The notes beneath the pieces are model-generated. The model was not told the DNA's origin. It saw nothing but the letters and a program-made list of their open reading frames with translations, and searched no databases. From NCBI GenBank assembly GCA_003223135.1, contig QHXX01000038.1:27672-91671 (forward strand): a stretch of DNA of 64,000 bases, in the 5' to 3' direction. Of this stretch, positions 9,700 through 56,345 are shown in pieces; within the stretch, counting starts at the first letter, position 1; each line of letters begins with the position of its first letter. This stretch comes from Acidobacteriota bacterium (GTDB lineage Bacteria; Acidobacteriota; Polarisedimenticolia; Gp22-AA2). A program made the translations under genes and the position numbers.

Positions 9700-9760
9700 C
9701 TCCGCACCACGCTCGTCGCGCTCTCTTCGCGCCCGCAAGCCTGCGCCGGCAGGATCCCGC

Positions 9761-10477: not shown

Positions 10478-10533
10478 CACCGATCCGCTCCCGGTGGCCC
10501 GCCCAGGGGCCCGTCCCCTACTCGGACCGGCCC

Positions 10534-11001: not shown

Positions 11002-11134
11002 GAATGGACCTCCCTGGGATCGAAGGAGCGGATCCGGTCGAAACGCCACCGGATTGTAGCGGATCCCCGGCGCCGGGGAGCGGCCGCCGGACAGGTCGGA
11101 CCCCTGTGGTAAGATTCGCACGAGGCTCCGTCCA

Positions 11135-11797: not shown

Positions 11798-11854
11798 GGG
11801 CCGGCCCGGCTGCCGGGAAGGGCCGGGTCGCCGGGACTTTCATCAGGAGAGCGC

Positions 11855-14334: not shown

Positions 14335-14347
14335 GCGAGGAAGGGTT

Positions 14348-14656
14348 CTACGCGCCGCTCCCGGACACGGCGGCCCCCGGTCGGGGGCGGCGGATCAGCA
14401 TCAGATTGCGCACGTAGATCAAGACCCCCGCCGATTGCCCGACGGTGATCACGATGTCCTGCCGGTACCAGAAGGCGTAGACGAACAGAATGAGACTGCC
14501 CGCAAGGCTCAGGTACCAGAACGCCACGGGGACGGTGGTCTCCTTGCGACGCTCCGAGGCGAGCCACTGCACGATGAAGCGCAGGCCGAAGAGGATCTGT
14601 CCCAGCATGCCGAACAGCACCCAGCCGTTCACGTGCAGCAGGCGTTCAAACATCAT
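14348..14656 (-). CDS. lipid-A-disaccharide synthase N-terminal (LAB_N) domain small membrane protein
   Basis: About 100 aa, three TM helices, WYRQD motif (FVYAFWYRQDIVITVGQ) typical of LAB_N proteins that partner GT2 polyprenyl-phosphate glycosyltransferases; overlaps GT2 stop by 11 nt. Confidence 0.6.
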   Translation of the reverse strand: MMFERLLHVNGWVLFGMLGQILFGLRFIVQWLASERRKETTVPVAFWYLSLAGSLILFVYAFWYRQDIVITVGQSAGVLIYVRNLMLIRRPRPGAAVSGSGA

Positions 14657-15377
14657 CCTTCACCTCGTAGCGCAGCTTGCGCCGCTTCATCCAGCGCACG
14701 GCGAGCAAGTCCATGAACGACGGCAGGAGCCGGTTGCCGATGCCGTACTTCGATTCACCGTGGCGGCGGGGCCGGTGCCCGACCGGAACTTCCATCACCC
14801 GGAACCCTTCCATCTTCAGTAGCGTCGGCAGGAAGCGGTGCAACCCGTCGTAGAGCACCAGACGCTGGAGAGCCGCCCGGCGGAACGCCTTGAGCGAGCA
14901 GCCGGTATCGGTGATTCTCTCGTCACTCAGCCGGTTGCGCACGTAGTTGGCGACCCTCGACGAAACGCGCCGCACCAGGTTGTCCTCGCGTGTCCGGCGC
15001 ACGCCCACGACCGCATCCGTACCTTTGAGCGCCTCGAGCAGACGCGGGATGTCGGTCGGGTCATTCTGGAGATCCGCGTCGAGCGTCACCACCACGTCGC
15101 CCCGCGCGCTCCTGAAGCCGGCATCCATGGCCGCCGACTGTCCGGCGTTCCTGGCGAAGGTGACGACCCGGACGCGCGGATCGGCGTCGCGCAGCCCCCG
15201 CAGCACGGTGTCGCTGCCGTCGGTCGAACCGTCGTCGACGAACAGGATCTCGTATCCGTTGCCGAAGGACTTCAAGACGTCCGTGATCTCCCTGTGGAGG
15301 ACGGGGAGGTTGTCGCGCTCGTTGTAGACGGGGATGACCAGGGAGAGCCCGACGGATCTCGTCGTCCCGCCGCTCAC
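14646..15377 (-). CDS. GT2 polyprenol-phosphate glycosyltransferase (ArnC/DPM1-like)
   Basis: LSLVIPVYNERDNL, DDGSTDGS, DAD..NDP (DXD), C-terminal TM; classic ArnC-like architecture. Confidence 0.85.
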   Translation of the reverse strand: MSGGTTRSVGLSLVIPVYNERDNLPVLHREITDVLKSFGNGYEILFVDDGSTDGSDTVLRGLRDADPRVRVVTFARNAGQSAAMDAGFRSARGDVVVTLDADLQNDPTDIPRLLEALKGTDAVVGVRRTREDNLVRRVSSRVANYVRNRLSDERITDTGCSLKAFRRAALQRLVLYDGLHRFLPTLLKMEGFRVMEVPVGHRPRRHGESKYGIGNRLLPSFMDLLAVRWMKRRKLRYEVKDDV

Positions 15378-15378
15378 G

Positions 15379-16011
15379 CTAATTGAATATCCAGAAGCGG
15401 CGGAGGCGGCTCATCAGGCGGTGCCGCGCCGACTCCGCCTCTGTCAGGAGCTCGGGCGCCAGACGCGATTTCCACTTAAGGACGGCCGCGTCGTCGATGC
15501 GCCGGAGGATCGGGAACAGGAAGCGCGCGCCCAGGCCCGCGGGGTCGAAGCAGAACGAGGCGTTGAAGTCGATGATGCACGGCCGGCCGTCTTCGGTGAT
15601 CAGGATGTTGTCGCGCTTGCGCAGGTCGATGTGGGCGACGCCGCGCGCGTGGATCTGCCCCACCAGGGTCCGGAGCCTGTCGAACATGGGAGCGGTCTCC
15701 GCGCGTTTCCGGCGGCACCAGCGGGTGATCCACTCCCCCTCGATCGGCTCCATCAGGATGCCACAGGCACCGGCCTCGCCGAAGCATCTCGGGATGCCGG
15801 CGATCCCCTGCAACCGGCGGAGGGCCCGCATCTCCCGGGCCACCTGGCGGCGGCCGAGCAGGCGCACCGGCCAGGACTTGTCGGAAAAGTCCTTCAGGAC
15901 GGCGCGGTCACCCGCGTACCCCACGCACTTGATGTCGGGTTTGGCCCAGCTCCCCTGCCGGATGACCTGGATCGTGAGCGGGGTAGCGGCGGCCTCGAGC
16001 GTCTCGGCCAT
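15379..16011 (-). CDS. small Kdo/WaaP/RIO-like protein kinase family protein (paralogue 1)
   Basis: LKDFSDKSWP (Lys motif), catalytic loop HARGVAHIDLRKRDNILI, IIDFNAS (DFG-like); 1 nt upstream of GT2 start, so it heads the kinase-GT2-LAB_N operon. Confidence 0.55.
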   Translation of the reverse strand: MAETLEAAATPLTIQVIRQGSWAKPDIKCVGYAGDRAVLKDFSDKSWPVRLLGRRQVAREMRALRRLQGIAGIPRCFGEAGACGILMEPIEGEWITRWCRRKRAETAPMFDRLRTLVGQIHARGVAHIDLRKRDNILITEDGRPCIIDFNASFCFDPAGLGARFLFPILRRIDDAAVLKWKSRLAPELLTEAESARHRLMSRLRRFWIFN

Positions 16012-16085
16012 CGGCGGTCCTGTGCTATTCTCCGGCGTCAGAAAAGGACGTTCATCTTACCATAGCCGCTCACGGGGCACCGGTC

Positions 16086-16790
16086 ATGGCCTTTCGCCGA
16101 GAGCACGCCGGGTCGACGGCCCGGGCCCACGCCGACGCGACGATTGTGCTGGCTCGTGAACGCCTCGCTTCTCTCCCGCGCCGCAGACTGCACGGCGGAC
16201 GGAATTTCACCAAGGCGGTCGTTGACCTGGTCGAGATCGATGGGCGCACCATCATCCTGAAGGACATCGCCTCCCGTCCCTGGCCCGTGCGCCTGCTCCT
16301 CGGTCCGTGGCAGCTCGACCGCGAGGGGCGCGCCTATCGCGCACTGGCCGGGGTACGCGGCACCCCCGCCTTCGTGGCCAGGATCGACCGGCAGGCGATC
16401 GCGCTCGAGTACGTCCCGGGCCGGAGCCTGGCCTCGTACCGGCGGGGGGAGCTGAAGGCCGACTTCTTCGACCGCCTGGACCGCCTCCTGGACGATATCC
16501 ACGCGCGCGGCGTGGCGCACGGCGATCTGCACCGGCACGACGTCCTGGCCGGCCCCGGCGGCGAACCGTACCTGGTCGATTTCTCCACCTCGATGGTCGC
16601 GCCTCACGGGGCCGGGGCGCTGGCGCGATTTCTGTTCCGCCAGATGTGCCGGGCCGACCGTCGCTCCGCCGCCAAGCTCAGACAGCGGTTCCTCCCCGGC
16701 AGCCGCGCGCCCGTGCCGGAGCGCTCCGGTCTGTACCGCGTCGGCGGCTGGGCGCGGCGTATCGCCGATCGGTTCCGGCGTTCGCGGTAG
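16086..16790 (+). CDS. small Kdo/WaaP/RIO-like kinase-family protein (paralogue 2, catalytic Asn replaced)
   Basis: Clear paralogue of 15379..16011 (LKDIASRPWPVRLL; HARGVAHGDLHRHDVLAG; LVDFSTS) but the Asn of HxDLxxxN is Val; divergently transcribed from paralogue 1 across a 74-bp spacer. Confidence 0.55.
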   Translation: MAFRREHAGSTARAHADATIVLARERLASLPRRRLHGGRNFTKAVVDLVEIDGRTIILKDIASRPWPVRLLLGPWQLDREGRAYRALAGVRGTPAFVARIDRQAIALEYVPGRSLASYRRGELKADFFDRLDRLLDDIHARGVAHGDLHRHDVLAGPGGEPYLVDFSTSMVAPHGAGALARFLFRQMCRADRRSAAKLRQRFLPGSRAPVPERSGLYRVGGWARRIADRFRRSR

Positions 16791-16887
16791 GAGCCTGTCC
16801 GGGTTCCAGGAGCGGACGAATTCGCGCACCGCCGCTGTTATAATCCCGTCGGGCTTCATGGACCGACCGCGGGAGAGACGGTATTCC

Positions 16888-17343
16888 ATGATCAAGGACG
16901 TCCGCACGAAGATCCTCAAGGTCATCCCGGACGAGCGCGGCCGTCTCATGGAGACCTTGCGCTCCGACGACGACATGTTCACCAAGTTCGGCCAGGCGTA
17001 CATCACCACCGCCTATCCCGGCGTCGTGAAGGGATGGCACTATCACAAGATCCAGGTTGACAACTTCATCGGCGTGAAGGGGATGTTCAAGGTCGTCCTG
17101 TACGACACTCGCGAGGGCTCGCCGACACGCGGCGAAATCAACGAGTTCTTCCTGGGCGTGCACAATCCGATGCTCGTGCAGATCCCGCGGCTGGTCCTGC
17201 ACGGCTTCAAGGCGATCGGGACGGAAGAGGCGATCATGCTCAATCTGCCGACGGAACTCTACCGTCACGACGCCCCCGACGAGTACCGGGTCGACCCCCA
17301 CGACCCCGACGTCCCCTACGACTGGGCGCTGAAGGAGAGATAG
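16888..17343 (+). CDS. RmlC-family cupin (dTDP-4-dehydrorhamnose 3,5-epimerase-like or 3,4-ketoisomerase-like), short form
   Basis: GWHYHK, SPTRGE, IPRLVLHGFKAIG cupin motifs; ATG at 16888 has GGGAGAG RBS; ATG at 16858 lies only about 12 nt after a TATAAT hexamer (about 16839-16844) and is less likely. Confidence 0.6.
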   Translation: MIKDVRTKILKVIPDERGRLMETLRSDDDMFTKFGQAYITTAYPGVVKGWHYHKIQVDNFIGVKGMFKVVLYDTREGSPTRGEINEFFLGVHNPMLVQIPRLVLHGFKAIGTEEAIMLNLPTELYRHDAPDEYRVDPHDPDVPYDWALKER

Positions 17344-17345
17344 AC

Positions 17346-18089
17346 ATGAAGGGAGTCATTCTGGCGGGGGGCCTGGGGACGCGACTGCATCCTCTGACCA
17401 AGATCACCAACAAGCACCTCCTGCCGATCTACGATCGGCCGATGATCCACTACCCGCTCATGACTCTGGTGGATGCAGGCGTCCGCGACATCCTCATCGT
17501 CACCGGGGGAAATCACGCCGGCGAGTTCCTGCGCCTCCTGGGGAACGGCCGCGAGTTCGGCCTCGACGACATCGCGTACACGTACCAGGAGGGCGAGGGC
17601 GGGATCGCCGACGCCCTGTCCCTGGCAAGCCACTTCGCGGACGGCGAAAAGATCGTGGTGATCCTGGGCGACAACATCATCGAGGGAGACATCCGGAAGC
17701 CGGTGGATGCGTTCAGGGCGCAGCCGAAGGGGGCGCGCCTGCTCCTCAAGAAGGTGCCCGACCCCGGCCGCTTCGGCGTGCCGGAGCTGCGTGACGGGCG
17801 AATCGTTTCGATCGAGGAGAAGCCAAAGAGCCCGAAGTCGGACTACGCCGTCATCGGCATCTACATGTACGACGCCAGGGTGTTCGACATCGTCTCGACG
17901 CTCGAGCCGTCGGCCCGCGGCGAGCTCGAGATCACCGACGTCAACAATGCCTATCTGGAACGCGGGGAGCTGGAGCACGACATCCTCGAAGGGTGGTGGA
18001 CCGATGCCGGCACGTTCGAGTCGCTGTTCCGCGCCAACCAGCTCGTGCGCGAGAAGATGATCGAAAAGCTGACGGCGCGGATCGGCTGA
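17346..18089 (+). CDS. rmlA: glucose-1-phosphate thymidylyltransferase-type sugar nucleotidyltransferase (short RmlA form)
   Basis: MKGVILAGGLGTRLHPLT (GxGTRL), KPMI..P, nucleotidyltransferase fold; tight spacing to the RmlC-like gene and rmlB. Confidence 0.8.
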   Translation: MKGVILAGGLGTRLHPLTKITNKHLLPIYDRPMIHYPLMTLVDAGVRDILIVTGGNHAGEFLRLLGNGREFGLDDIAYTYQEGEGGIADALSLASHFADGEKIVVILGDNIIEGDIRKPVDAFRAQPKGARLLLKKVPDPGRFGVPELRDGRIVSIEEKPKSPKSDYAVIGIYMYDARVFDIVSTLEPSARGELEITDVNNAYLERGELEHDILEGWWTDAGTFESLFRANQLVREKMIEKLTARIG

Positions 18090-18093
18090 CCCG

Positions 18094-19095
18094 ATGACGC
18101 GCGTTCTCGTAACCGGGGGAGCCGGGTTCATCGGCTCCCACTACGTCCACCACGCCCTCGCCGCCCATCCCGACTGGCACATCACGGTCCTCGACAAGCT
18201 GACCTATGCCGGCAACCTCGCGAATCTCGAGGACGTGAAGGACCATCCCCGCTACCGCTTCCTGTGCGGCGACATCGCGTCGCGACCGGACGTGGAGAAG
18301 GCAACGGAAGATGGGATGGACTGTATCTTCAACTTCGCGGCCGAGACGCATGTGGACCGATCCATCGGCCAGCCCGAGGGGTTCATCCGCACCGACATCT
18401 ACGGCGCCTACACGCTCCTGGAAGTCGCGCGACAGCGCAAAGCGAAGGCGTTCGTGCAGATCTCGACCGACGAGGTGTACGGGAGCGTCGCGCAGGGGCA
18501 GAGCCGCGAGACCGACGCCCTGATGCCGAGCAATCCCTATTCCGCGAGCAAGGCGGCCGCCGACCGCCTGGCCTATTCCTATTTCGCGACGTACGGGCTG
18601 CCCGTCTATATCAGCCGCGCATCGAACAATTTCGGTCCGCGCCAGTATCCCGAGAAGGTCATTCCGCTGTTCGTCACCAACGCCCTCGTGAACGAGCCGC
18701 TCCCCCTGTACGGCGACGGCGAGAACGTCCGCGACTGGCTGTTCGTGACCGATCACTGCATGGCCCTCGACGTGATGCTCGAGCGCGGCGCACCCGGCGA
18801 GGTCTACAACATCGGCGCGGGCAACGAGCGCCGCAACATCGAGATCACCCGGCTGATCCTCGATCGCCTGAACAAGCCCACAACCCTCGTCCGCCCTGTG
18901 CAGGACCGGCCGGGGCACGATCGGCGCTACGCCCTCGACTGCTCCAAGATCCGGGCGCTCGGCTGGGCCCCGCGCGTGACGTTCGAACAGGGGCTGGAGC
19001 AGACGATCGCCTGGTACACGGAGAACCGCTCCTGGTGGCTGCCGATCAAGACGGGGGAGTACCTCGAGTACTACCGGAATCACTACCGCCTCTGA
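18094..19095 (+). CDS. rmlB: dTDP-glucose 4,6-dehydratase
   Basis: TGGAGFIGS Rossmann, STDEVYG, YSASKAA (YxxxK), strong full-length RmlB similarity. Confidence 0.95.
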   Translation: MTRVLVTGGAGFIGSHYVHHALAAHPDWHITVLDKLTYAGNLANLEDVKDHPRYRFLCGDIASRPDVEKATEDGMDCIFNFAAETHVDRSIGQPEGFIRTDIYGAYTLLEVARQRKAKAFVQISTDEVYGSVAQGQSRETDALMPSNPYSASKAAADRLAYSYFATYGLPVYISRASNNFGPRQYPEKVIPLFVTNALVNEPLPLYGDGENVRDWLFVTDHCMALDVMLERGAPGEVYNIGAGNERRNIEITRLILDRLNKPTTLVRPVQDRPGHDRRYALDCSKIRALGWAPRVTFEQGLEQTIAWYTENRSWWLPIKTGEYLEYYRNHYRL

Positions 19096-19765
19096 GCGAT
19101 TCCTCCACGTCGAGAGAGCGCAGGACACCGTTGGTCCCCAGCGTGAAAGTCATCTCGAGGAGCGGACGGCCGGGAAGCGACGTGTCCCAGTAGAACAGGT
19201 GACCCCGGAAGCCCTCCTCGACCTCGTCCGTCTCGATGCGCGACCATGCGTCCCGGGCGTCCAGGCTCTCCAAAAGGCGCTGCATCTCGGCTTCGCTTCC
19301 GCGCGCCCCTTCGAGGGCCACGACGTCCAGGGGCGTCAGGACGAGCTCGGGGAGAAGTCCCTCCAGACGCAGATCGCAGCCGATCATCTCGCGCGCGCTC
19401 GCGCGATCGAGGGACAGGCCGTCCCGCGCCACGGCCGCGCCGATCCGCCTTCGGGTCTCCTCCGCCGGCTGGGGAGGAACCCGCCCGAGGTTCGCCAGGT
19501 TCTCCGGCCACAGGCCGCGGACGCCGACGATCACCCAGGTCTCCGCGCAGGCGTTCGTGCAGACAACGTACAACCTCAAGTGTTTGAGGGGCGGGCAGGG
19601 AATCCTCTCGACCTCCACCCCGCCGATCCGCCCGGGATAGCGAGCGGAGAGCGCGGCGAGGCCGCGGCTGAGACCCTCCGGCGGATCGACGAGTGCCATG
19701 CCCCACAAGGCCACGATGGCCAGGAGCGCCATGAGGGCTCCGGCCAGCACACCGGTCCACCTCAC
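19046..19765 (-). CDS. hypothetical membrane-anchored protein, translationally coupled to upstream GT39/ArnT-like gene
   Basis: N-terminal TM LAGALMALLAIVALWGMAL; GTG start overlapping the ArnT-like TGA (GTGA); 3' end overlaps rmlB stop convergently by about 50 nt (true stop uncertain). Confidence 0.4.
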   Translation of the reverse strand: MRWTGVLAGALMALLAIVALWGMALVDPPEGLSRGLAALSARYPGRIGGVEVERIPCPPLKHLRLYVVCTNACAETWVIVGVRGLWPENLANLGRVPPQPAEETRRRIGAAVARDGLSLDRASAREMIGCDLRLEGLLPELVLTPLDVVALEGARGSEAEMQRLLESLDARDAWSRIETDEVEEGFRGHLFYWDTSLPGRPLLEMTFTLGTNGVLRSLDVEESLRGGSDSGSTRGTPPS

Positions 19766-21390
19766 CGCGCCGCGTCCTTCGACAACAGATGGTATGGCTG
19801 TCCCGCCACCGTGCCGCGGAGGTCTTCCACGACGCCGGGGAGCGCGGACAGATCGACCGCGCGCAGCAGGTCGTCCTCGATCAGAAGCTGCCGGGGACCG
19901 GGTCGCGAGAGATACTCGACGATGGCGGGCGGCGTGTCGGCCTCCTCGGCGAACCGGCCCGTGTAGAACACCCAGGCGTCACGCTTTTCTTCCGTCGTGG
20001 CGAAACCCGCCCGGGGATCCAGGCGCGTCTTCACGTCCGAGGCGAAGTGGCTGATGTTCTGGCGCCGGTTCACCCACGGCAGAAGGGCCTCCGTCGCCAC
20101 CAGGACCACGACGACGAGCGATCCCAGAAGACAGATCAAGGCACCCCCCGTGCGGCCCTTCGCGTGCAGGACCGCCGCCGCGACTGCCCCGGAAGCGAAG
20201 GCGAGCCCGATGGACGCTGCCACGAGGGTGAGCTCCGGATAGCGGTGGCGCGCCGCAAGCGGCAGTCCCGTCGCGAGGAGAAGCGCCGCCGCGGCCCACG
20301 CGATGAGGGGAGCGCGCAGGCGCCGCGCGCCGCCGGAGGAGACGTCCGACTCCCAGGCGCGGGCCAGGAGGCGCGCCACCAGGATCGCCGCCGCCGGGTA
20401 GAGCGGAATGATGTACACCCCGCGCTTGCCCGTCGAGAATGAGAAGAACAGGAGGATCGACGCGATCCAGGTCAGAAGGAAAAGCGCGGCGCTCCTGCGC
20501 TCGCGCTCCTCGCGCGACAGCGCCTGCGCGATGCCCCACGGCAGGAAGACGATCCAGGGGAAGAAGCCGACCGGGAAGCGCCACAGGTAATACCAGACGG
20601 GATGCGTCGCGTTCCACGCCCCGACGTAGCGCTCGACGTTCTGATGCATCAGGACCCAGAGCGCGTACCGGGGTCCCAGCCGCCAGGCGAACAGGCCGAA
20701 CCAGGACAGGGTGATCAGGAGGAAGAGGGCGATGCCGATCGGCGAAACGATGCGCCGAGCCGACCGGAAGTCGCGCTCGATGAGCGCCGACGGAAGCACC
20801 GCGAGGATCGGCAGGATCAGGCCCACGGGTCCCTTGGCCAGGGTCGCCAGCGCCATCATGACCCAGGCGAGGGCGATGCGGGTGCGCCCTCCGCCCTGCT
20901 CCGCGCGGCCCCGCCAGAGCAGCACGACGGCCGACAGGACGAAAAGGTTCAGCGTCATGTCGATCGCGGCCCAGCGGCCGCGCTCGAGGATCTGCAGGGA
21001 CGTGGCGAACACGAGCGCCGCGAGGAGACCGGTCCGCCGGTCGTAGAGCCAGGCACCCAGACGCTCGATCAGCAGGATTGCGAGAACCGCGGAGACCGCG
21101 GAAGGCAGCCGCGCCGCCCATTCGTCGATTCCCCCGAGGAGCCTCCCGAATCCATTGATCGCCCAGAAGAACAGCGGTGGCTTGTCGGTGTAAAGATGAT
21201 TATTGAGCGACAGCACCGAGTAATCTCCGCGGGCCCACATCTCCTTCGCCACGAGCGCGAAGCGCGGCTCGTCGGGCGGCCACAGGTCGTGAGAGCCGAG
21301 CCGCCAGAAGAACAGCACGAAGCCGGCGGCCAGGAGGAGCGCGAGACGGCGCCACGGACCGCGCGCGTTGACAGTGCCGGGTCCGTCCAT
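19762..21390 (-). CDS. GT39/ArnT-like polyprenyl-phosphate-sugar dependent glycosyltransferase (PMT_2 family), paralogue 1
   Basis: Multi-TM N-terminal domain with conserved DEPRFALVAKEM, YTDKPPLFFW, LAKGPVG motifs typical of ArnT/PMT-type C-glycosyltransferases; soluble C-terminal domain. Confidence 0.7.
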   Translation of the reverse strand: MDGPGTVNARGPWRRLALLLAAGFVLFFWRLGSHDLWPPDEPRFALVAKEMWARGDYSVLSLNNHLYTDKPPLFFWAINGFGRLLGGIDEWAARLPSAVSAVLAILLIERLGAWLYDRRTGLLAALVFATSLQILERGRWAAIDMTLNLFVLSAVVLLWRGRAEQGGGRTRIALAWVMMALATLAKGPVGLILPILAVLPSALIERDFRSARRIVSPIGIALFLLITLSWFGLFAWRLGPRYALWVLMHQNVERYVGAWNATHPVWYYLWRFPVGFFPWIVFLPWGIAQALSREERERRSAALFLLTWIASILLFFSFSTGKRGVYIIPLYPAAAILVARLLARAWESDVSSGGARRLRAPLIAWAAAALLLATGLPLAARHRYPELTLVAASIGLAFASGAVAAAVLHAKGRTGGALICLLGSLVVVVLVATEALLPWVNRRQNISHFASDVKTRLDPRAGFATTEEKRDAWVFYTGRFAEEADTPPAIVEYLSRPGPRQLLIEDDLLRAVDLSALPGVVEDLRGTVAGQPYHLLSKDAAR

Positions 21391-21441
21391 CTAGGATGCC
21401 CCCTCCCTGACGCGAGCGGACGCCGTTCCCGGAGACGACAG

Positions 21442-22002
21442 GTGACTGAGCGCAGCAGGACCCTCGGCCGCATTCGTCTCGCCGCCGTTTACGTCTTCAT
21501 CGCCGTCCTGATCGACGTGTCCCGCCCCACGCGGGCGTCTCTTCTGGCCGGAGCGACCCTCACACTCATCGGCGAGGCGATCCGGATCTGGGCGGCGGGA
21601 CACCTGACCAAGTCGGTCCGCCTCGTCACCTCCGGGCCGTACGCCTACACGCAGAACCCGCTGTATCTCGGGCGCCTGCTGATCCTCACCGGCCTCGCGA
21701 TCGCCGCGCGAACGGAAGGGTACCTGAACCTTCTCGCCCTTGCGCTGGGGTACGCCGTCTTCTTCTTTTATTACATCCCGCGCAAGCTGCGGGTGGAAGG
21801 AGGGCGTCTCGCCGGCCTGCACGGAGAGGCGTTCGAACAGTACCACCGGAGCGTGCCGATCCTGGTCCCGCGGCTCCGCCGCTATCCCGGCGGCCGGGAG
21901 GGATGGTCTTTCCGCCTCATCGTGGCGAACCAGGAGCCCCTCGTCCTGACCGGCATCGTGCTGGTGCTCGCCCTGCTGGCGTGGAAGACAGCGCATCCCT
22001 GA
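21442..22002 (+). CDS. isoprenylcysteine carboxyl methyltransferase / phospholipid methyltransferase-family membrane methyltransferase
   Basis: VTSGPYAYTQNPLYLG (ICMT/PEMT signature), 4-5 TM helices; GTG start with GGAG RBS; 51-bp divergent spacer to ArnT-like gene 1. Confidence 0.7.
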   Translation: MTERSRTLGRIRLAAVYVFIAVLIDVSRPTRASLLAGATLTLIGEAIRIWAAGHLTKSVRLVTSGPYAYTQNPLYLGRLLILTGLAIAARTEGYLNLLALALGYAVFFFYYIPRKLRVEGGRLAGLHGEAFEQYHRSVPILVPRLRRYPGGREGWSFRLIVANQEPLVLTGIVLVLALLAWKTAHP

Positions 22003-22040
22003 GCGGATATGCCGCGGGGCGAGCGGCGCGCGACGGGATC

Positions 22041-23090
22041 TCATCCCGCAGCCGCCCGGCCGGCCACTCCCGCCACGAGGTCCGCCAGTCGCGCGCCGAC
22101 GGCCGAGGCCTCATAATGCTCCTCGACCAGCGCCCGGCCGCGCTCTCCCATCTCCAGGGCGAGCCGCGGATCGGCGACGAGGCGGCGGAGGCGATCGGCC
22201 CACTCGTCCGTCGTGCGCGCGAAGAACCCCGTCTCGTTCTCCCGCACCAGGTCGCGGTTCGCGCCGACCGGCGAGCAGACGACCGGCAGCCCCGCGGCCT
22301 GGTACATGAGGATCTTCAGCCCGCACTTCCCCTGGGAGAACGCCGTGTCGTCGAGCGGCATCACCCCGAGGTCGAGGTCCAGGAGGGCCGAGGGCTCGTC
22401 CTCCAGGCTCCACGTGATCGTCTCCGTCGGCACGCCCGGCAGATCGACAAACTCGCTGCAGATCTGGACGAAGATCCCGCCCGTCTCCGCGAGCACGCGT
22501 CGCAGCGGCTCCGCCAGGGCGGGCAGGTACCGCAGACTCGGGCGGCTCCCGACCCAGCCGATGCGCGGCGCCCTCCCCCCGGCACGCCGCGCCTCGCGCG
22601 CCCTCCGCAGCGCACCGTCCGGAAAGAGACGCAGATCGACGGCGGTCGGAAGCACCGTCACGTCCCGGGCGAAGCGCGCTGCGTATTCGGCGAGGAAGCG
22701 GTTACCGGCGATCACCCTGTGGCTGCGCCGGAGCACAGCCGCGAGCCGCCTGCGGCGCGAGGCGGCGCGTTTCTCCGCCCGCTCCGCCCCGAAACGCTCG
22801 CGCTCGTCGGGGCTGACCGTGAACACGGCGTCGTCGAGATCGAACAGGATCGGCGCGGGGCCGAGCAGGAGCGGCAGCTTCCAGCGCGCGAACAGCTTCT
22901 TCTGGACCAGGACGGCGTGGGAGCGGCGTGCGCGGCGCGCCAGGTCCGCCAGATCGGCCGCCCGGCGTCTTTTCGCCACGAAGACGTCGGCGTCGATGCC
23001 GCGCCCCTTCAGGAGAGCCAGGTGCTGCAGGACCCGCAGCCGACTGCTCGGATGTTCGACCCCGCCGTTGAGGATACACAGAACGCGCAA
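22041..23090 (-). CDS. GT4-family (GT1-fold) glycosyltransferase
   Basis: C-terminal GT-B motifs (LDLGVMPL..., E-x7-E region ENETGFFA), N-terminal LRVLCILNGG; preferred start TTG at 23090 with GGGAGG RBS; ORF-track ATG at 23174 would add 28 residues. Confidence 0.75.
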   Translation of the reverse strand: MRVLCILNGGVEHPSSRLRVLQHLALLKGRGIDADVFVAKRRRAADLADLARRARRSHAVLVQKKLFARWKLPLLLGPAPILFDLDDAVFTVSPDERERFGAERAEKRAASRRRRLAAVLRRSHRVIAGNRFLAEYAARFARDVTVLPTAVDLRLFPDGALRRAREARRAGGRAPRIGWVGSRPSLRYLPALAEPLRRVLAETGGIFVQICSEFVDLPGVPTETITWSLEDEPSALLDLDLGVMPLDDTAFSQGKCGLKILMYQAAGLPVVCSPVGANRDLVRENETGFFARTTDEWADRLRRLVADPRLALEMGERGRALVEEHYEASAVGARLADLVAGVAGRAAAG

Positions 23091-23202
23091 CCTACCTCCC
23101 GGTGACGCGCACCACGCCCGGCGCGGGGTCGATGGCGACCCTCCCGAGAGCGTCCCGCCATCCGCGGTCCCCATGATTATGAGCCGACCGGCGGGAGCCC
23201 GG

Positions 23203-24855
23203 TCACGGCCCCCCCATGCCCGGCATCGATCGTTCTTCCACGGTGCCGGCCCCGCCCGCCACGAGGAGCATCGTGCGGTGTCCGACCTGCTGTCGGTCCA
23301 GGACCTCCAGGTTCGGGTCGAGAGCCCGCCGCTCCGCCTCGTAGACGTCGTCCTCGATGAGACAGAAAGAGCGCCTCCCCGAGGAAAAATACTGTCTGAG
23401 CTCCTCGCGGTCGCGCAGGACCGGGATGAAGCGCCCGGTGTAGTAGACGTACGTCGGATGGTAGTCCGGATACATGGCCAGCGGCCGGTCGCCGACGACC
23501 CCCAAGATTCGATGGCAGAAGGCGCGGGCGGACTTGTGAGGGTCGAGGGCCGGCAGGACGGCGATCGGGATCACCAGGTAGGTGACCACAAGCCCGGTGC
23601 TGAAGGCCGCCAGGGCGGCTCCGCCCCCGCGGCGCCGGTGCACGACGAGGGCCAGGAGCGTCCCCAGACACGCCACCGACGCCAGGAGGGCCGCCGGACC
23701 CAGCAGGTCGGGGGCCTGGACCCTGAGCTTCGGCAGCACCACGATCGCACCGCCGAGCGCCAGCAGGAGCGAGGTCCCGAGCAACCAGGAGATCGGGCGG
23801 TCGGCCGGCGATGGTTCCCAGCCGAGGAGGGCCAGGTCCCACACGCGCGCCACGAGAAGGGCGAGAAGCGGAAGGAGCGGCAGGAGGTACACGCCGCGTT
23901 TCTCGACCGACAGGCCGAACACGGTGAAGGTGACCAGGATCCATGAATAGACGTAGGCGTTGTCCCTGTCGGGCCGCGCGCCGCGCCGGGGAAGGGTCTG
24001 CCAGAGGGCCGCGGGGAGCAGGAGCACCCAGGGGAAGAATTCCGCCGCCAGGCTGATCAGGACGTGGTAGAACGGATGCGCGTGGTGCTCGCCGCGCGTG
24101 AAGCGGTGCGCCAGACGGAGGAGAAGCGCCTCCAGCGGGAACGCTTCGCCGGTGCTGCGGTAGGCGGCGACCCACAGGCCGGCCGGAACGAGGGCCAGCG
24201 GCAGGCCCCAGGCCAGCCCCATGCGCCTCACGAAACCGAGGTCGCGCGACGAGGCCAGGAACACGATGACGGACAGCAGGGGAATCAGGAGACCGTGCGG
24301 TCCCTTGGTGAGATTCGCCAGACCGATCGATAGATAGAAGACCGCCAGGAAACGCCGATCCCCCCCGGCACGGTAGGCCTGGTGGAACGCCACGCACGAG
24401 AGCAGAAGCCAGAACGTCCACAGCATGTCGGGATGGGCCCAGCGTGCCTCCATGAAATAGCCGTAGGTCGTCGCCAGAATGACGGCCGCGAGCGCCCCGG
24501 TGCGCCGGCCGAACAGACCACGGCCCAGGTAAAAGACCACGAACAGGCCGAGGAGGGCCGCCAGGCTCGACGGCAGGCGAAGCGCGAATTCCGTGGGCCT
24601 CCCCGCCGGCAGCGAGGCGAGCGCCCCCAGCCAGGGGTACAGAGGCGGCTTCTCGAAATAGAGCTGCTGGTTGTCGCGCAGGACGGCCCATGACCCGGTC
24701 AGATGGATCTCGCGTACGACTTCCCCGACGTCCGGCTCGTCGGGGGCCCAGAGGTCGTGCCCGCCCAGGCCGGTGGCGAAGAGCGCAACACCGAGAAGGA
24801 GGAGCAGCAGGAGGCAGTTCCGGTCGCTCCGGAAGATGCGGATCGCCAGGGACAT
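23203..24855 (-). CDS. GT39/ArnT-like glycosyltransferase (PMT_2 family), paralogue 2
   Basis: Same architecture and motifs as 19762..21390 (DEPDVGEVVREI, YFEKPPLYPW, LTKGPHG); multi-TM plus C-terminal soluble domain. Confidence 0.7.
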   Translation of the reverse strand: MSLAIRIFRSDRNCLLLLLLLGVALFATGLGGHDLWAPDEPDVGEVVREIHLTGSWAVLRDNQQLYFEKPPLYPWLGALASLPAGRPTEFALRLPSSLAALLGLFVVFYLGRGLFGRRTGALAAVILATTYGYFMEARWAHPDMLWTFWLLLSCVAFHQAYRAGGDRRFLAVFYLSIGLANLTKGPHGLLIPLLSVIVFLASSRDLGFVRRMGLAWGLPLALVPAGLWVAAYRSTGEAFPLEALLLRLAHRFTRGEHHAHPFYHVLISLAAEFFPWVLLLPAALWQTLPRRGARPDRDNAYVYSWILVTFTVFGLSVEKRGVYLLPLLPLLALLVARVWDLALLGWEPSPADRPISWLLGTSLLLALGGAIVVLPKLRVQAPDLLGPAALLASVACLGTLLALVVHRRRGGGAALAAFSTGLVVTYLVIPIAVLPALDPHKSARAFCHRILGVVGDRPLAMYPDYHPTYVYYTGRFIPVLRDREELRQYFSSGRRSFCLIEDDVYEAERRALDPNLEVLDRQQVGHRTMLLVAGGAGTVEERSMPGMGGP

Positions 24856-24911
24856 TCTTTCGTGGCTCCCGGCCCCGAAACGGGCCCGACACCGCGGAGG
24901 TCGAGGATCGC

Positions 24912-26780
24912 TCAGAGGACCGAGGCCTCCGGTGCCGGCCGATCGTCGCGGAATTGCAGCGCGTACAGACGCGCGTAGTGGCCCTTGCGCGCCAGAAGTT
25001 CCGGGTGCGTGCCGCGCTCGACCAGGGAACCCTCGTCGAGGACCAGGATGACATCGGCCCGGCGTACGGTCGAGAGGCGATGGGCAATGACGAACACGGT
25101 CCGCCCGGTCATCAAGTTCTGGAGGGCGCCCTGCACCTCGGCTTCCGATTCCATGTCCAGAGACGACGTCGCCTCGTCCAGGATGAGAATCGGGGAGTCC
25201 TTCAAGATGGCCCGGGCGATCGAGATCCTCTGCCTCTGCCCCAGTGACAGCCGGTGGCCGGCCTCCCCGAGCGTCGTGTCGAATCCGCGCGGCAGCGCCT
25301 CGATGAACTGCTCGGCGTGGGCGGCGCGCGCCGCCGCCGTCACCCTGTCCAACGGCACGTCGGCCCGGCCGTAGGCGATGTTGTTGCGCACGGTGTCGTC
25401 AAACAGAATCACCTCCTGCGTGACGATCCCGATCTGCGCGCGAAGCGACGCCAGCGACACTTCGCGGACGTCCCGGCCGTCGATGAGCACCGCCCCCTTG
25501 TTCACGTCGTAGAATCGCGGCAGCAGGTTCACCAGGGTCGACTTGCCGGCCCCGCTGGAACCGACCAGGGCGACGACCGTGCCGGCGGGAACGACGAGGT
25601 CGACGCCCCGAAGGACCGGCGCCTGGCCGTAGGCGAAGTGCACGCCCCGGAACTCGATCCGGTCGCGGAACGGCGGCAGATCCAGGGCCGCCGGTTTTTC
25701 GCGGATGCGGTTCGGCAGGTCCATAAGCTGGAAGACGCGCTGGGCCGCCGCCATCGCCTGCTGCACCTCGTTGTTGATCTTCACAAGGTTCTTGATCGAT
25801 CCGTAGATCATGAACAGAGCGGCGAAGAAGGTGAAGACATCGGCGGGGGAGAGCTTCCCCGCGTGGATGCGCTGCAGGGCGTAGGCCAGGAGGATGGCGG
25901 CCCCGATGGCGCCGACCAGCTCCAGCACGGGGGCGGTCAGCGACACCAGCCGCGCCGCCCGTTTCTCGGCATTCTGGATACGGTCGAGGGCCCTGCGGAA
26001 GCGCCCGATCTCGAACTCCTCCATCCCGAAGCCCTGCACGATGCGCGTTCCGGTGATCCCCTCCTTCATCACGTCGACCGCCTCGCCCATCTTCTCCTGG
26101 CTCCGCCGGCTGGTGGCCTTGAGGCGCGCCCCGAAGCGCGCCACCGGATAGACGAGCAGGGGCAGGAGGATCAGGCAGAAGGAGGCGAGCCGCGCGTTGA
26201 GGTAGAACAGCCAGGCGGCCTGCCCGATGACGATCGCCCCGAGACGGAACACCTCGGCGAGGTCGCCGGACACGAGTCTCTGGAGCCGCCCCACGTCGTT
26301 CACCACGCGGGAGATCAGGCTGCCCGTCGGGTGATCCGAGAAGAACGCCAGCGATTGTCTCTGGACCCGCGCGTACAGGTCGGCGCGGAGATCACGCACC
26401 GCCTGCAGGCCCGCCGAGCGCGTCAGGTACGAGGCGAGGTAGGTGAAGATCCCCTTGAGGACGAACAGCACGACGATCAGAACCGCGATCAGGATGATCG
26501 TGCCCTTCGTCCCGCCGCCCAGCCAGCGGGCGAACGGCAGGCCGGGCGCATCCGTCCCGCCGGCGCCGAGGAGCTTCCTGAGGTGATCGAACGGCCGGGT
26601 CTTGCCGGCGGCGGCGCCCGGGAGCGTCACGGCACCCGGGAAGAGCAGCTCCAGGATCGGCTGGATGAGGACCAGGAGGCCCACATAGACGAGGGAGATG
26701 AGAACGGAGCACACGGCGGCCGCGATCAGGCGGCCGAGGTAGGGCCGCACGTAGCGCAGCAGCCGGCGAAAATCCTTCAT
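24912..26780 (-). CDS. msbA: ABC transporter ATP-binding/permease, MsbA-like lipid A/lipid exporter
   Basis: 6-TM exporter domain plus NBD with Walker A GSSGAGKST, signature LSLGQRQR, Walker B ILILDEATS; GAGGA RBS. Confidence 0.85.
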   Translation of the reverse strand: MKDFRRLLRYVRPYLGRLIAAAVCSVLISLVYVGLLVLIQPILELLFPGAVTLPGAAAGKTRPFDHLRKLLGAGGTDAPGLPFARWLGGGTKGTIILIAVLIVVLFVLKGIFTYLASYLTRSAGLQAVRDLRADLYARVQRQSLAFFSDHPTGSLISRVVNDVGRLQRLVSGDLAEVFRLGAIVIGQAAWLFYLNARLASFCLILLPLLVYPVARFGARLKATSRRSQEKMGEAVDVMKEGITGTRIVQGFGMEEFEIGRFRRALDRIQNAEKRAARLVSLTAPVLELVGAIGAAILLAYALQRIHAGKLSPADVFTFFAALFMIYGSIKNLVKINNEVQQAMAAAQRVFQLMDLPNRIREKPAALDLPPFRDRIEFRGVHFAYGQAPVLRGVDLVVPAGTVVALVGSSGAGKSTLVNLLPRFYDVNKGAVLIDGRDVREVSLASLRAQIGIVTQEVILFDDTVRNNIAYGRADVPLDRVTAAARAAHAEQFIEALPRGFDTTLGEAGHRLSLGQRQRISIARAILKDSPILILDEATSSLDMESEAEVQGALQNLMTGRTVFVIAHRLSTVRRADVILVLDEGSLVERGTHPELLARKGHYARLYALQFRDDRPAPEASVL

Positions 26781-26851
26781 CGGTCCTCAGCAGAGAGTGG
26801 GCGGGAGGTTCCTCGCGCCGGGCGGCTCGAGCCGCGCTTCATCCGCGCGTC

Positions 26852-27274
26852 TCAGCGCGGCGGGATCTCCAGGGCGCTGAAGAAGTAGCCGATCTCGAAG
26901 CTGGCGGTCGCCGGCCCGTCCGACCCGTGCACGATGTTCTTCTCGATCGAGGAGGCGAAATCCTTTCGGATCGTGCCGGCGCCGGCCTTGGCGGGGTCGG
27001 TGGAGCCCATGACGGTCCGGACCCTGGCGATGGCGTCTTCTCCTTCGAGCACCATCGGCACGATCGGTCCCGAGGACATGAACGCGACGAGCGACGCGAA
27101 GAATGGACGCTCGCGGTGCACGTGGTAGAACCCCTCGGCCTCCCCGCGGTCCAGGCGAACCATTTTCAGCGCCACGACCTTCAGGCCGGCGGCCTCGAAG
27201 CGGCGCACCACCTCTCCGATAAGATTTTTCGCGACACCGTCCGGCTTCACGATGGACAGAGTTCTCTCGATCAC
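26852..27274 (-). CDS. ndk: nucleoside diphosphate kinase
   Basis: [21 protein letters not shown] active-site His, 140 aa. Confidence 0.95.
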
Positions 27275-56195: not shown

Positions 56196-56345
56196 CGTGA
56201 TCTCCACGCGTGGCGCGGCAAGTGGCCACCAGGCAGGATGTTTCGAGTATAGCACCCGCTTCATCGGGCTCCCGTCGCCTGGACGTCGCCGGGTCAGGTC
56301 CGGCAATGCGCCTCCCAAGCCTTACTGAGCGATTTCCAAAGTGAA

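Follow-up and report, generated by a model that had tools for sequence, protein, structure and literature searches.

The region between positions 14348 and 26780 of the 64-kb stretch of acidobacterial DNA analysed here (the window) combines ArnC- and ArnT-like enzymes with small kinases, a putative membrane methyltransferase and part of a dTDP-sugar pathway. This raises the question of what such a cluster modifies, and which of its genes act together. Sequence comparison leads us to favour, with moderate confidence, a vertically inherited cluster for the decoration of lipid A-core, organized in two layers, in an uncultured Polarisedimenticolia-type acidobacterium.

Gene content and genomic context

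All the genes that an earlier note had listed for 14348-26780 were found by GC3-based frame analysis and by Pfam and NCBIfam searches, and an independent gene call on an identical public contig (L025) agrees with the list:

14348-14656 (-): LAB_N small membrane protein, 102 aa (PF07578, 103 bits)
14646-15377 (-): ArnC-like GT2, catalytic domain only (ArnC structures 9BHC/8VXH)
15379-16011 (-): kinA, minimal RIO/Bud32-like kinase, 210 aa
16086-16790 (+): kinB, small kinase paralogous to kinA, 234 aa
16888-17343, alternative start 16858 (+): RmlC-like cupin, 151 aa (PF00908), accessory layer
17346-18089 (+): short RmlA-like sugar-1-phosphate nucleotidylyltransferase, 247 aa (TIGR01207), accessory layer
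18094-19095 (+): RmlB, dTDP-glucose 4,6-dehydratase (TIGR01181), accessory layer
19046-19765 (-): p239, N-terminally anchored periplasmic protein, 239 aa, accessory layer
19762-21390 (-): GT-C 1, ArnT-like (GT83-type; ArnT 5EZM), the group A GT-C of the module
21368-21397 (+): sigma-70-like promoter match upstream of the LmtA-like gene (weak evidence)
21442-22002 (+): LmtA-like (ICMT/PEMT-fold) membrane methyltransferase, 186 aa (PF04191; TIGR04571)
22041-23174 (-): GT4-type (GT-B) cytoplasmic glycosyltransferase, accessory layer
23203-24855 (-): GT-C 2, second ArnT-like enzyme, group B, adjoining msbA (NCBIfam ArnT)
24912-26780 (-): MsbA-like lipid A-core flippase, an ABC exporter (TIGR02203)

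The description of this region as an island does not hold in the sense of horizontal transfer. GC content is uniform over the whole window, and in L001-L010 and L028-L040 the entire cluster keeps its place, flanked by sucCD-ndk and proS; it is therefore not a horizontally acquired island. This synteny marks it as a chromosomal cluster conserved among Polarisedimenticolia-type Acidobacteriota.

A core module shared across phyla

Comparison of about 40 related loci, with gene neighbours counted over 39 of them, separates a core from an accessory layer. By homology, the core is a five-part module composed of an ArnT-like GT-C, a TM-less ArnC-like GT2, an overlapping LAB_N protein, an LmtA-like methyltransferase and one or more small RIO-like kinases; as such it is uncharacterised, and two phyla at least possess it. 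Its recurrence extends to identities of about 35% and includes low-GC loci (one of them from a Syntrophaceae MAG) that carry GT-C, GT2, LAB_N, LmtA-like and kinase genes in this order on one strand, always without rml genes. The rmlA/rmlB, cupin, GT4 and p239 genes are limited to the closest clade.

Of all module genes, the LmtA-like one is the most constant, which does not fit the suggestion that a methyltransferase would be unusual for such loci. It adjoins one or more small kinases in 30 of the 39 loci, has a GT-C nearby in 32 and a GT2 in 22; at the nine loci without an adjacent kinase, the contigs apparently end before the kinase position (by inspection, not measured). In several unrelated lineages, LPS inner-core and arn genes stand beside homologous modules: L011 has arnA-, arnD- and arnT-like genes and a WaaP-family kinase, L100 an ArnB-like aminotransferase, L111 a KdsB-type cytidylyltransferase, and L114 hldE-type genes with a GT9 heptosyltransferase. 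Close relatives carry a PAP2-like phosphatase, which also belongs to this LPS context.

A proposed ArnC/ArnT-like sugar route

The match of the GT2 to the ArnC structures (1.3e-45) spans ArnC residues 10-225, and both the DDG and the DAD motif are kept. Unlike ArnC, in which the TM helices occupy residues 230-305 (PMC12690121), it stops at residue 243 and lacks the two TM helices and the beta-hairpin. The gene for LAB_N, with two to three hydrophobic helices, overlaps the GT2 stop by 11 nt; LAB_N is a member of the Pfam MtN3-like clan, along with the SWEET and PQ-loop families (PMC4499210). The same arrangement, a GT2 that ends after the ArnC core followed by an overlapping membrane ORF of 90-124 aa, is found in most module loci, and the sole GT2 with C-terminal TM helices (L072) has no overlapping membrane ORF. 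In line with this, we propose LAB_N as the membrane partner of the GT2, possibly a flippase.

Small activators or anchors are part of the three-component systems GtrA/GtrB/GtrX, human DPM1 with DPM2/3, GacI/GacJ and PpgS/Rv3632. The cluster shares with these systems a Pren-P GT2, a small membrane protein encoded by the adjacent gene and a GT-C that would use the product; unlike GtrB, which retains its own TM helices, the present GT2 has none. To our knowledge, a partner of the three-helix LAB_N type (MtN3/SWEET clan) is not described for any of them.

The two GT-C enzymes, 32% identical to each other, had been labelled GT39/ArnT-like. They are ArnT-like (GT83) and not PMT-like: GT-C 1 matches ArnT 5EZM at 8.5e-31, with no match to PMT structures at E<0.01, and NCBIfam ArnT is found at 1.4e-47 for GT-C 1 and 5.4e-35 for GT-C 2, both under the equivalog cut-off. 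In ArnT, attention falls on a lysine motif and on Tyr43, the latter essential in the Burkholderia enzyme (PMC5377068). The lysine motif (Y-x-[DE]-K-P) is kept in both proteins, as part of the loop-1 motif PDEPRFA...YTDKPPLFFW that GT-C 1 has in common with the GT-Cs of the low-GC operons, and as an intact YFEKP in GT-C 2. Tyr43 is kept in neither, with RYA replaced by RFA (Phe) in GT-C 1 and by DVG in GT-C 2. The product of the gene coupled to GT-C 1, p239, was taken for a membrane protein. The coupling was borne out, as its GTG overlaps the GT-C 1 stop as GTGA, but p239 is a single-pass periplasmic protein, in which a lone N-terminal helix is joined to a soluble domain that contains four invariant cysteines.

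The logic of the cluster is that of the Arn (Pmr) system of E. coli, Salmonella, Burkholderia and Cupriavidus (ArnC, ArnE-ArnF, ArnT), in which a cytoplasmic GT2 makes a polyprenyl-phosphate sugar with the help of a small membrane partner and a periplasmic GT-C transfers the sugar to lipid A; the sequence relation is strong as well, and the ArnT Lys69 motif is kept. There are also differences: LAB_N takes the place of an SMR-type ArnE/F, there are two GT-C paralogues, and all scores lie below the NCBIfam equivalog cut-offs. The window contains no arnA, arnB or arnD, and an identity of the sugar as Ara4N is therefore not established. The MsbA-like protein, with ABC_membrane and ABC_tran domains, reaches 559.9 bits on TIGR02203, just below the cut-off of 602. 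The GT-C/msbA adjacency is retained in distant acidobacterial-type loci, and a GT-C and an ABC exporter are encoded beside P0334. As no lpx or kdt genes are found within the window, lipid A in this organism is indicated only by the MsbA-like and AsmA-like genes. Together, the ArnC and ArnT relationships, the adjacent msbA-like gene and the LPS genes at homologous modules support the proposal that a polyprenyl-phosphate sugar, made by the ArnC-like GT2 with LAB_N, probably feeds ArnT-like GT-C enzymes acting on lipid A/LPS.

Small kinases and an LmtA-like enzyme

Two small kinases, about 35-37% identical, are indeed encoded here, but their designation as Kdo/WaaP-like is a weak one: kinA scores 20.8 on PF06293 vs the cut-off of 21.3, kinB has no match to this Kdo-family model, and the closest fold is Rio2, which points to RIO/Bud32-type protein and RNA kinases rather than WaaP.

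The membrane protein at 21442-22002 is probably, as anticipated from its ICMT/PEMT-like features, a methyltransferase with a lipid or a glycan as substrate. Its gene lies on the (+) strand, opposite to both of its neighbours, diverging from GT-C 1 and converging on GT4. It passes PF04191 (26.9 vs a cut-off of 25), and its family profile matches ICMT 5V7P at 1.7e-4. Its best NCBIfam match is TIGR04571, LmtA (1.4e-10), which is also the best named family for the distant homologues in L011 and L087 (1e-12 and 6.3e-8). The LmtA match amounts to 41 bits, far under the equivalog cut-off of 325, and the protein reads QNPLY where ICMT usually has RHPxY, so that we infer even the SAM-dependent methylation. 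The upstream promoter match (TTGACA-18-TAGGAT, 10 of 12 positions) is the only one in 13.6 kb, with 0.7 expected by chance.

In Leptospira, lmtA causes methylation of lipid A phosphate (PMC4103559). LmtA of L. interrogans, an ICMT/Ste14-like lipid A 1-phosphate O-methyltransferase, and the protein studied here are both small, polytopic and of ICMT/PEMT fold, among LPS genes; the latter is shorter (186 aa vs a 252-position model), and proteins of its type come together with a small kinase, in some cases as one fused protein. We know of no such kinase pairing for LmtA. Fusions of kinase and LmtA-like domains occur in P0326, P0353, P0375 and P0403, the first three involving the kinB orthologue, and the P0326 fusion sits in the same GT2/kinase/GT-C architecture. 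These fusions recall WbdD, whose kinase and then methyltransferase make methyl phosphate in two steps (PMC3482155). In E. coli O9a, WbdD caps the O-antigen with methyl phosphate, its joined activities working at the cytoplasmic membrane with a lipid-linked glycan as substrate; the likeness is one of analogy, not homology. The methyltransferase of WbdD belongs to the soluble class I Rossmann-fold enzymes. The one encoded here is an integral-membrane ICMT-fold protein, a coiled-coil ruler is absent, and O-antigen genes of the ABC-transporter-dependent kind do not lie nearby.

The accessory sugar-nucleotide genes

RmlB scores 450.6 bits on TIGR01181, over the cut-off of 365.1, whereas the nucleotidylyltransferase, clearly RmlA-like, is short and stays under its own (TIGR01207, 251.9 vs 360.65). 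Compared with the RmlABCD pathway to dTDP-L-rhamnose, RmlD is missing from the window. As first noted, no 4-reductase stands beside RmlA/B: a Pfam scan of the GC3-supported genes of the window revealed neither this enzyme nor an aminotransferase, insertions in the relatives' clusters contain neither, and tblastn with RmlB as query detected no second SDR in the whole window. The cupin, for which a 3,4-ketoisomerase role had been suggested, belongs to the RmlC superfamily (PF00908, 1.1e-14) and scores equally on the CapF-type cupin model (PF14667, 1.7e-14); FdtA stays below its cut-off (20.9 vs 23 bits), and the best PDB match is the uncharacterised structure 3EJK (1.2e-19). It has no equivalents of Lys73 and Asp170 but keeps the catalytic His and Tyr of RmlC; these two residues and the RmlC-like scores leave the ketoisomerase idea unsupported. 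GT4, with generic matches only, in its C-terminal region, shares its clade restriction with the rml genes and co-varies with them; it is likely the user of the dTDP-sugar.

The sugar-nucleotide genes are a recent add-on to the cluster, and their conserved position inside it in this clade could still reflect a functional link to the core module.

Alternative readings and a model

The earlier note had the rml genes and the cupin make an unreduced dTDP-4-keto-6-deoxyhexose derivative that the GT2/LAB_N pair would load and the GT-Cs transfer to lipid A/LPS. The genes do lie within the cluster, rmlAB stay there in every close relative, no 4-reductase or aminotransferase accompanies them, and the HxH motif of the cupin also resembles those of ketoisomerases and metal cupins. 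Against this, 21 more distant loci have some or all of the GT2, LmtA-like and kinase genes, most with orthologous GT2 and GT-C, and none with rml genes; since the core module recurs without rml genes, such loading is poorly supported. Moreover, L006, L009 and L040 keep rmlAB without the cupin, the cupin itself scores as RmlC-like, and the cytoplasmic GT4 could use an NDP-sugar directly. The solved GT2 homologues ArnC and GtrB use UDP-sugars, and the third, DPMS, uses GDP-mannose. We regard this reading as very doubtful.

Two further readings keep the core module and change its target. Ahead of flipping, the kinase(s) and the LmtA-like enzyme might tailor the sugar while it is linked to polyprenyl phosphate, in the manner of ArnD on Und-P-Ara4FN, so that the GT-Cs would deliver a phosphorylated and methylated sugar while lipid A-core itself would be neither phosphorylated nor methylated. 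The coupling of kinA to GT2-LAB_N, with its stop codon 1 nt from the GT2 start, and the adjacency of these genes on one strand in the low-GC loci are in agreement with this idea, as is the ICMT fold, which is built for an isoprenoid-linked acidic head group; yet LmtA-like/kinase pairs occur without a nearby GT2 or GT-C (L087, L111), the LmtA-like gene of L114 follows the heptose and heptosyltransferase genes, and LmtA, the nearest named relative, acts on Kdo2-lipid A according to the name of its NCBIfam model, which makes sugar tailoring unlikely though credible. The target might otherwise lie outside LPS, as periplasmic or outer-membrane proteins (PMT-like O-glycosylation), another glycolipid or an exopolysaccharide. 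Both GT-Cs pass the Pfam PMT and PMT_2 cut-offs, the essential Tyr43 is not conserved, the kinases are nearest in fold to protein kinases, and the P0403 fusion and the unfused L087 pair sit outside any LPS context. The structural match to ArnT rather than PMT, the conserved GT-C/msbA adjacency, the LPS genes beside homologous modules and the kinship with LmtA weigh against such a target, which we consider quite improbable.

Gene content, family relationships, synteny, co-occurrence and gene fusions are observed, whereas every substrate and every chemical step in the preferred model of lipid A-core decoration is what we infer. One or two RIO-like kinases would phosphorylate a membrane-bound glycolipid on the cytoplasmic face, with lipid A or its Kdo/inner core as the likeliest candidate, and the LmtA-like enzyme would then use SAM to methylate a phosphate (or a carboxylate). 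At the same time, the GT2, anchored and possibly assisted in flipping by LAB_N, would make a polyprenyl-phosphate sugar from some nucleotide sugar. Once MsbA has flipped lipid A-core, the two GT-Cs would glycosylate two different sites in the periplasm, p239 acting as a helper of GT-C 1. A dTDP-6-deoxyhexose precursor, confined to this clade, would come from RmlA, RmlB and the cupin, with a 4-reductase encoded elsewhere in the genome, and would more probably serve the neighbouring cytoplasmic GT4 or glycan synthesis elsewhere.

Organization and chromosomal setting of the cluster

The window has a G+C content of about 68%, and raw ORF lists are consequently full of spurious frames. The gene map presented here is based on codon-position GC (GC3) analysis, family searches and an independent gene call on the identical contig L025. 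These three lines of evidence agree and the gene overlaps are real; the inventory that the earlier note gave for 14348-26780 is therefore correct, its main error being the strand of the ICMT-like methyltransferase gene, which actually lies on the opposite (+) strand.

Gene map of the cluster (window coordinates, strand, product)
14348-14656, minus strand, LAB_N
14646-15377, minus strand, ArnC-like GT2
15379-16011, minus strand, small kinase kinA
16086-16790, plus strand, small kinase kinB
16888-17343 (alternative start 16858), plus strand, RmlC-like cupin
17346-18089, plus strand, short RmlA-like protein
18094-19095, plus strand, RmlB
19046-19765, minus strand, p239, 239 aa
19762-21390, minus strand, ArnT-like GT-C 1
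21442-22002, plus strand, ICMT/PEMT-like (LmtA-like) methyltransferase
22041-23174, minus strand, GT4
23203-24855, minus strand, ArnT-like GT-C 2
24912-26780, minus strand, MsbA-like protein

GT-C 1 and p239 are joined by a GTGA overlap, the GT2 and LAB_N genes overlap by 11 nt, and the gap between kinA and GT2 is 1 nt. The ICMT-like gene separates two minus-strand units and runs in the reverse direction to them, with the sole sigma-70-like promoter match of the region just upstream of it. An Rfam scan of 13000-28000 returned no RNA elements, and terminator-like sites are not more frequent than expected by chance. In addition, a TATAAT hexamer at 16838-16844 (+) precedes the probable start of the cupin gene (16888) by about 45 nt, and a ribosome-binding-like GGGAGAG stands in front of that start; cupin-rmlA-rmlB may therefore have a promoter separate from that of kinB.

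At one end the cluster borders on proS and a VWA-domain gene, at the other on ndk, sucD and sucC, and the rest of the window consists of housekeeping genes (def, fmt, rsmB, an AsmA-like gene, icd, mdh and PBP1). The nearest genomes, MAGs that carry the label Acidobacteriota or Candidatus Polarisedimenticolia, show GT-C 1 identities of 53-77%, and the host organisms are uncultured. In these genomes (including L028, L030 and L040) the whole cluster keeps the same order and the same site between sucCD-ndk and proS. Since, in addition, GC content is flat over the whole window, horizontal acquisition of the cluster is rejected, and its former description as an island has to be abandoned.

A core module shared by distant lineages and a lineage-specific accessory layer

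Metagenome contigs were scanned with the methyltransferase alignment, and all proteins of the cluster were scored against every retrieved locus. Among the 39 loci with at least 5 kb of total flank, the LmtA-like gene is accompanied by an ArnT-like GT-C in 32, by a small kinase in 30, by the GT2 in 22 and by msbA in 17. In the 9 loci without a kinase, the contigs appear to end before the expected kinase position, as judged from flank lengths inspected by eye. Loci of low G+C content (44-52%), namely L011 (a Syntrophaceae MAG), L084, L095, L097, L098, L100, L101, L104 and L105, show the single-strand order GT-C > GT2 > LAB_N > LmtA-like > kinase, of which the shorter contigs preserve an uninterrupted section. 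The methyltransferase, whose presence had been considered unusual for such a locus, is instead the most constant member of the module and has a known lipid A precedent. Each of these enzyme families is already known; their combination is conserved across phyla, and the literature searched holds no description of a TM-less ArnC-like GT2 with LAB_N, an LmtA-like methyltransferase coupled or fused to a minimal kinase, and ArnT-like GT-Cs together.

The remaining genes follow a much narrower distribution. Both rmlA and rmlB are restricted to loci whose methyltransferase is at least 64% identical to that of the window, and GT4 (down to 63%, in L053) and p239 are limited to essentially the same clade. 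By contrast, 21 remoter loci carry the LmtA-like and kinase genes, mostly together with GT2 and GT-C, and have no rml genes at all. The occurrence of the module without rml genes in many lineages argues against the earlier proposal that the rml product is the donor of the GT2. Even inside the rml-bearing clade the cupin is missing from L006, L009 and L040. In L007 (10034-11539 and 11798-12550), GT-C 1 is tandemly duplicated, p239 is missing, and a 330-aa GT2 adjoining a PAP2-like gene takes the place of GT4; the accessory layer therefore differs between close lineages.

No reductase or aminotransferase gene was found in the rest of the window or in the variable gaps of its relatives, which hold a TPR-phosphodiesterase, an outer-membrane protein, malate synthase plus isocitrate lyase, an FG-GAP protein and the PAP2-like phosphatase. 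The latter is a membrane phosphatase gene of about 290-340 aa located between GT-C 2 and GT4 in close relatives (L004:7391-8353, L001:787-1650, L007:7310-8335). KX6RP, GHS and RX5HX3D-type motifs were recognized by eye, and the Pfam PAP2 model matches the L007 protein only (1.8e-5). Neither the window, where the counterpart gap is 23175-23202, nor its identical contigs L025 and L026 carry the gene, which suggests a lipid A or Und-PP phosphatase lost by the window's species.

The VWA-domain gene (about 13300-14334, plus strand; weak Big_7 match), which is convergent with LAB_N, keeps its place beside LAB_N-GT2 in every locus of the acidobacterial type, down to identities of about 38% (L041, L058, L076, L085), and is absent from the low-GC operons.

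The GT-C paralogues are ArnT-like

GT-C 1 matches the Cupriavidus ArnT structure 5EZM over residues 16-424 (8.5e-31), and the NCBIfam ArnT model PRK13279 matches both GT-C 1 (1.4e-47, 162.5 bits) and GT-C 2 (5.4e-35, 121 bits), both far under its equivalog cut-off of 567. No PMT structure appears among the PDB matches of GT-C 1 at E<0.01. The Pfam PMT and PMT_2 models do match the two proteins, but both models also cover ArnT-like proteins. Of the label GT39/ArnT-like used previously, the ArnT-like half is thus retained and the PMT-like half is dropped.

In ArnT, the periplasmic loop 1 carries the motifs RYA, with the essential Tyr43, and YFEKP, with the essential Lys69 (PMC5377068). The corresponding motifs are RFA and YTDKP in GT-C 1, and DVG and YFEKP in GT-C 2, so that the Lys69 position is kept in both and Tyr43 in neither. 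By family the GT-Cs are ArnT-like (GT83), yet their donor or their acceptor is probably not that of ArnT. None of arnA, arnB and arnD was found in the window.

The two paralogues are 32% identical. One group comprises GT-C 1 together with the GT-C of the low-GC loci, which share the signature Y-x-DKPPLFFW; the other is of the GT-C 2 type and always adjoins msbA. The MsbA-like protein scores 559.9 bits against the TIGR02203 cut-off of 602, and contains the ABC_membrane and ABC_tran domains.

A split ArnC-like glycosyltransferase with LAB_N as predicted membrane partner

The GT2 aligns with the Salmonella ArnC structures (9BHC, 1.3e-45) over ArnC residues 10-225, with GtrB and DPMS ranking next. 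Its DDGS and LDADLQN (DxD) motifs align with those of ArnC, and its GT-A catalytic domain is homologous to that of ArnC. Beyond this core, ArnC comprises a pair of juxtamembrane helices, two TM helices (residues 230-305) and a hairpin at the C terminus (PMC12690121). The window's GT2, whose last residue is 243 and in which no hydrophobic segment was found, lacks the C-terminal TM helices and the beta-hairpin through which ArnC forms its tetramer, as do nearly all of its orthologues.

In nearly all module loci, the GT2 reading frame closes immediately behind the ArnC core, and the next ORF encodes 90-124 aa with 2-3 hydrophobic segments. As a rule, this ORF overlaps the end of GT2 by 4-23 nt. 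L072 has the single GT2 orthologue with an 82-aa C-terminal extension comprising two TM segments, and no 90-124-aa ORF is found there. In the window, the LAB_N protein scores 103.3 bits with PF07578 (gathering score 26.7), covering profile positions 2-71 of 71. We infer from this pattern that LAB_N substitutes for the TM bundle of ArnC as a membrane anchor, which makes it a predicted membrane partner of TM-less Pren-P glycosyltransferases. LAB_N belongs to the MtN3-like clan of Pfam, together with SWEET/SemiSWEET and PQ-loop transporters (PMC4499210), and may also provide a translocation path for the polyprenyl-phosphate sugar.

The LmtA-like methyltransferase and its kinases

The methyltransferase scores 26.9 with PF04191 (PEMT; cut-off 25), and its family profile matches Tribolium ICMT (5V7P/5VG9, 1.4-1.7e-4) in the cofactor-binding C-terminal half. 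Its best NCBIfam match is TIGR04571, 'LmtA_Leptospira, lipid A Kdo2 1-phosphate O-methyltransferase' (1.4e-10); at 41.4 bits against a cut-off of 325, this is still the best named family, and it also ranks top for the remote homologues in L011 and L087.

The kinases have a protein-kinase-like fold with the catalytic Lys, Glu, HxD and DFG-type Asp intact, and they are about 35-37% identical to each other. With the Kdo/WaaP model PF06293, kinA scores 20.8 against a gathering score of 21.3 and kinB gives no match; some orthologues do carry PF06293, and some are labelled 'lipopolysaccharide kinase InaA family' by NCBI.

For the methyltransferase, kinA and p239, word-indexed searches retrieved nothing beyond close relatives, which bear generic names such as Ste14, Bud32 and 'InaA family'. 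In an exhaustive search of 1.84 billion representatives, 3,954 proteins were related to the methyltransferase at E<=1e-3, of which 1,057 also passed E<=1e-10. Among the best matches are fusions of 372-437 aa, with an N-terminal kinB-/kinA-like kinase and a C-terminal LmtA-like domain. One of them, P0326, is 44% identical to kinB and 54% to the methyltransferase, and its gene lies between GT2 plus a 228-aa gene and a convergent GT-C, the architecture also seen in the window; P0353, P0375 and P0403 are further examples. Such fusions are classical Rosetta-stone evidence for a common pathway of the kinase and the methyltransferase. Tandem duplications with two ICMT-like domains per polypeptide (410-604 aa) also occur, in P0380, P0394, P0402 and P0433.

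The rml genes and the cupin

RmlB scores 450.6 bits with TIGR01181, over the equivalog cut-off of 365.1. The RmlA-like protein, of 247 aa, matches profile positions 1-237 of 286 and stays under the cut-offs of both TIGR01207 (251.9 vs 360.65) and TIGR01208 (232.8 vs 320.25).

The cupin is matched equally well by PF00908 (RmlC) and PF14667 (CapF-type), at about 1e-14, and falls short of TIGR01221 (44.7 vs a cut-off of 155.75). Its best structural relative, 3EJK, is uncharacterised. The earlier reading of this protein as a 3,4-ketoisomerase does not agree with its PF05523 (FdtA) score, which at 20.9 bits over residues 14-87 only is under the gathering score of 23. The catalytic residues of RmlC are His63, Lys73, Tyr133 and Asp170. 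In an alignment with Methanobacterium RmlC, the cupin keeps the catalytic His and Tyr, has a gap at Lys73 and stops short of the Asp170 segment. A more general caution on annotation follows from the distribution of these genes, as an 'incomplete rml pathway' in an LPS cluster can be a lineage-specific insertion and not a clue to chemistry.

Evidence for an LPS target

The adjacency of msbA and GT-C at module loci is an LPS-type context, and contexts of this type recur around homologous modules in several independent lineages. Directly upstream of the module in L011 are arnA-like formyltransferase and dehydrogenase genes, a gene for an ArnD-like deacetylase, a second GT-C, a GT4 and a 540-aa WaaP-family kinase, and L100 carries an ArnB-like aminotransferase. 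A KdsB-type cytidylyltransferase lies beside the methyltransferase-kinase pair in L111, and hldE-type genes plus a GT9 heptosyltransferase lie directly upstream of an LmtA-like gene in L114. The PAP2-like phosphatase gene of close relatives and the ranking of LmtA as the nearest named family of the methyltransferase point to lipid A-core as well, all of this being contextual evidence. These contexts, together with the matches of GT2 to ArnC and of GT-C 1 to ArnT, lend support to the Arn-like logic and the LPS target put forward in the earlier note. There are counter-examples, with the methyltransferase-kinase pair of L087 and the P0403 fusion found in unrelated contexts, and no lpx genes occur in the window. 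In L109, the locus of P0403, the neighbours are a GDSL lipase and a RiPP-like set (PqqD, a transglutaminase-like gene, a Kdo-family kinase, NTP_transf_5 and radical SAM enzymes), a context that is not LPS-related and is at odds with the model proposed below.

A proposed model for lipid A-core capping

Capping of lipid A phosphates by aminoarabinose, phosphoethanolamine, galactosamine or methylation sets the charge of the outer membrane, as well as resistance to cationic peptides and innate immune recognition. To our knowledge, almost nothing is known about the LPS of Acidobacteriota and of syntrophic Desulfobacterota. The observed genes, families, linkage and fusions allow us to propose a sequence of steps. 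On the cytoplasmic face, kinB, and possibly kinA too, would phosphorylate a hydroxyl of lipid A-core, and the LmtA-like enzyme would then methylate a phosphate. There are two precedents for the methylation step: WbdD acts on the O9a glycan first as a kinase, then as a methyltransferase (PMC3482155), and methylation of the lipid A phosphate in Leptospira has been attributed to lmtA (PMC4103559). With respect to WbdD, the kinase/LmtA-like pair would be a membrane-embedded functional analogue. GT2-LAB_N would form the polyprenyl-phosphate sugar, MsbA would flip lipid A-core, and the sugar could then be added at two sites, by GT-C 1 (with the single-pass periplasmic protein p239) and by GT-C 2. 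In the clade that has them, the rml genes and the cupin would yield a dTDP-6-deoxyhexose precursor. The simpler assumption is that this precursor serves the cytoplasmic GT4, which co-varies with these genes, or another process, and that the 4-reductase is encoded at a different site in the genome.

An important variant places the kinase and the methyltransferase at a different point. By analogy with ArnD in the Arn pathway, they would modify the polyprenyl-linked sugar prior to flipping. As a whole, 'phosphorylate then methylate' capping of lipid A-core, genetically wired to a split ArnC-like GT2 with LAB_N, a SemiSWEET-like three-helix protein, as anchor and possible flippase of the polyprenyl-phosphate sugar for the ArnT-like transferases, is a tentative proposal, which we consider less likely than not.

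If the capping/split-ArnC reading is true, it would represent an undescribed cross-phylum pathway for neutralising LPS charge and the first function of a LAB_N domain outside LpxB. The linkage of a kinase and a membrane methyltransferase, fused in some lineages, to Arn-type glycosylation is a new combination. Upon confirmation, LmtA-type chemistry, so far tied to Leptospira lmtA, would reach many environmental bacteria, the family counting about 1,000 representatives at E<=1e-10. The predictions made here on the LPS chemistry of poorly known phyla are testable.

Other genes of the window

Two large proteins are encoded outside the cluster. The first, of about 1,025 aa (53241-56318, minus strand), combines SPFH/Band-7, a type I phosphodiesterase of the alkaline-phosphatase superfamily and TPR. 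The relative L005 has an insertion between p239 and rmlB that encodes a similar phosphodiesterase-TPR protein (9746-12874), and a Phosphodiest-family gene lies near the LmtA-like/kinase pair in L111. The second, at 58805-63940 (plus strand), is a 1,711-aa fusion of a Ser/Thr protein kinase, AAA_16, TPR, a sigma-54 activator and a Fis-type HTH, and constitutes an unusually long single-protein signalling chain.
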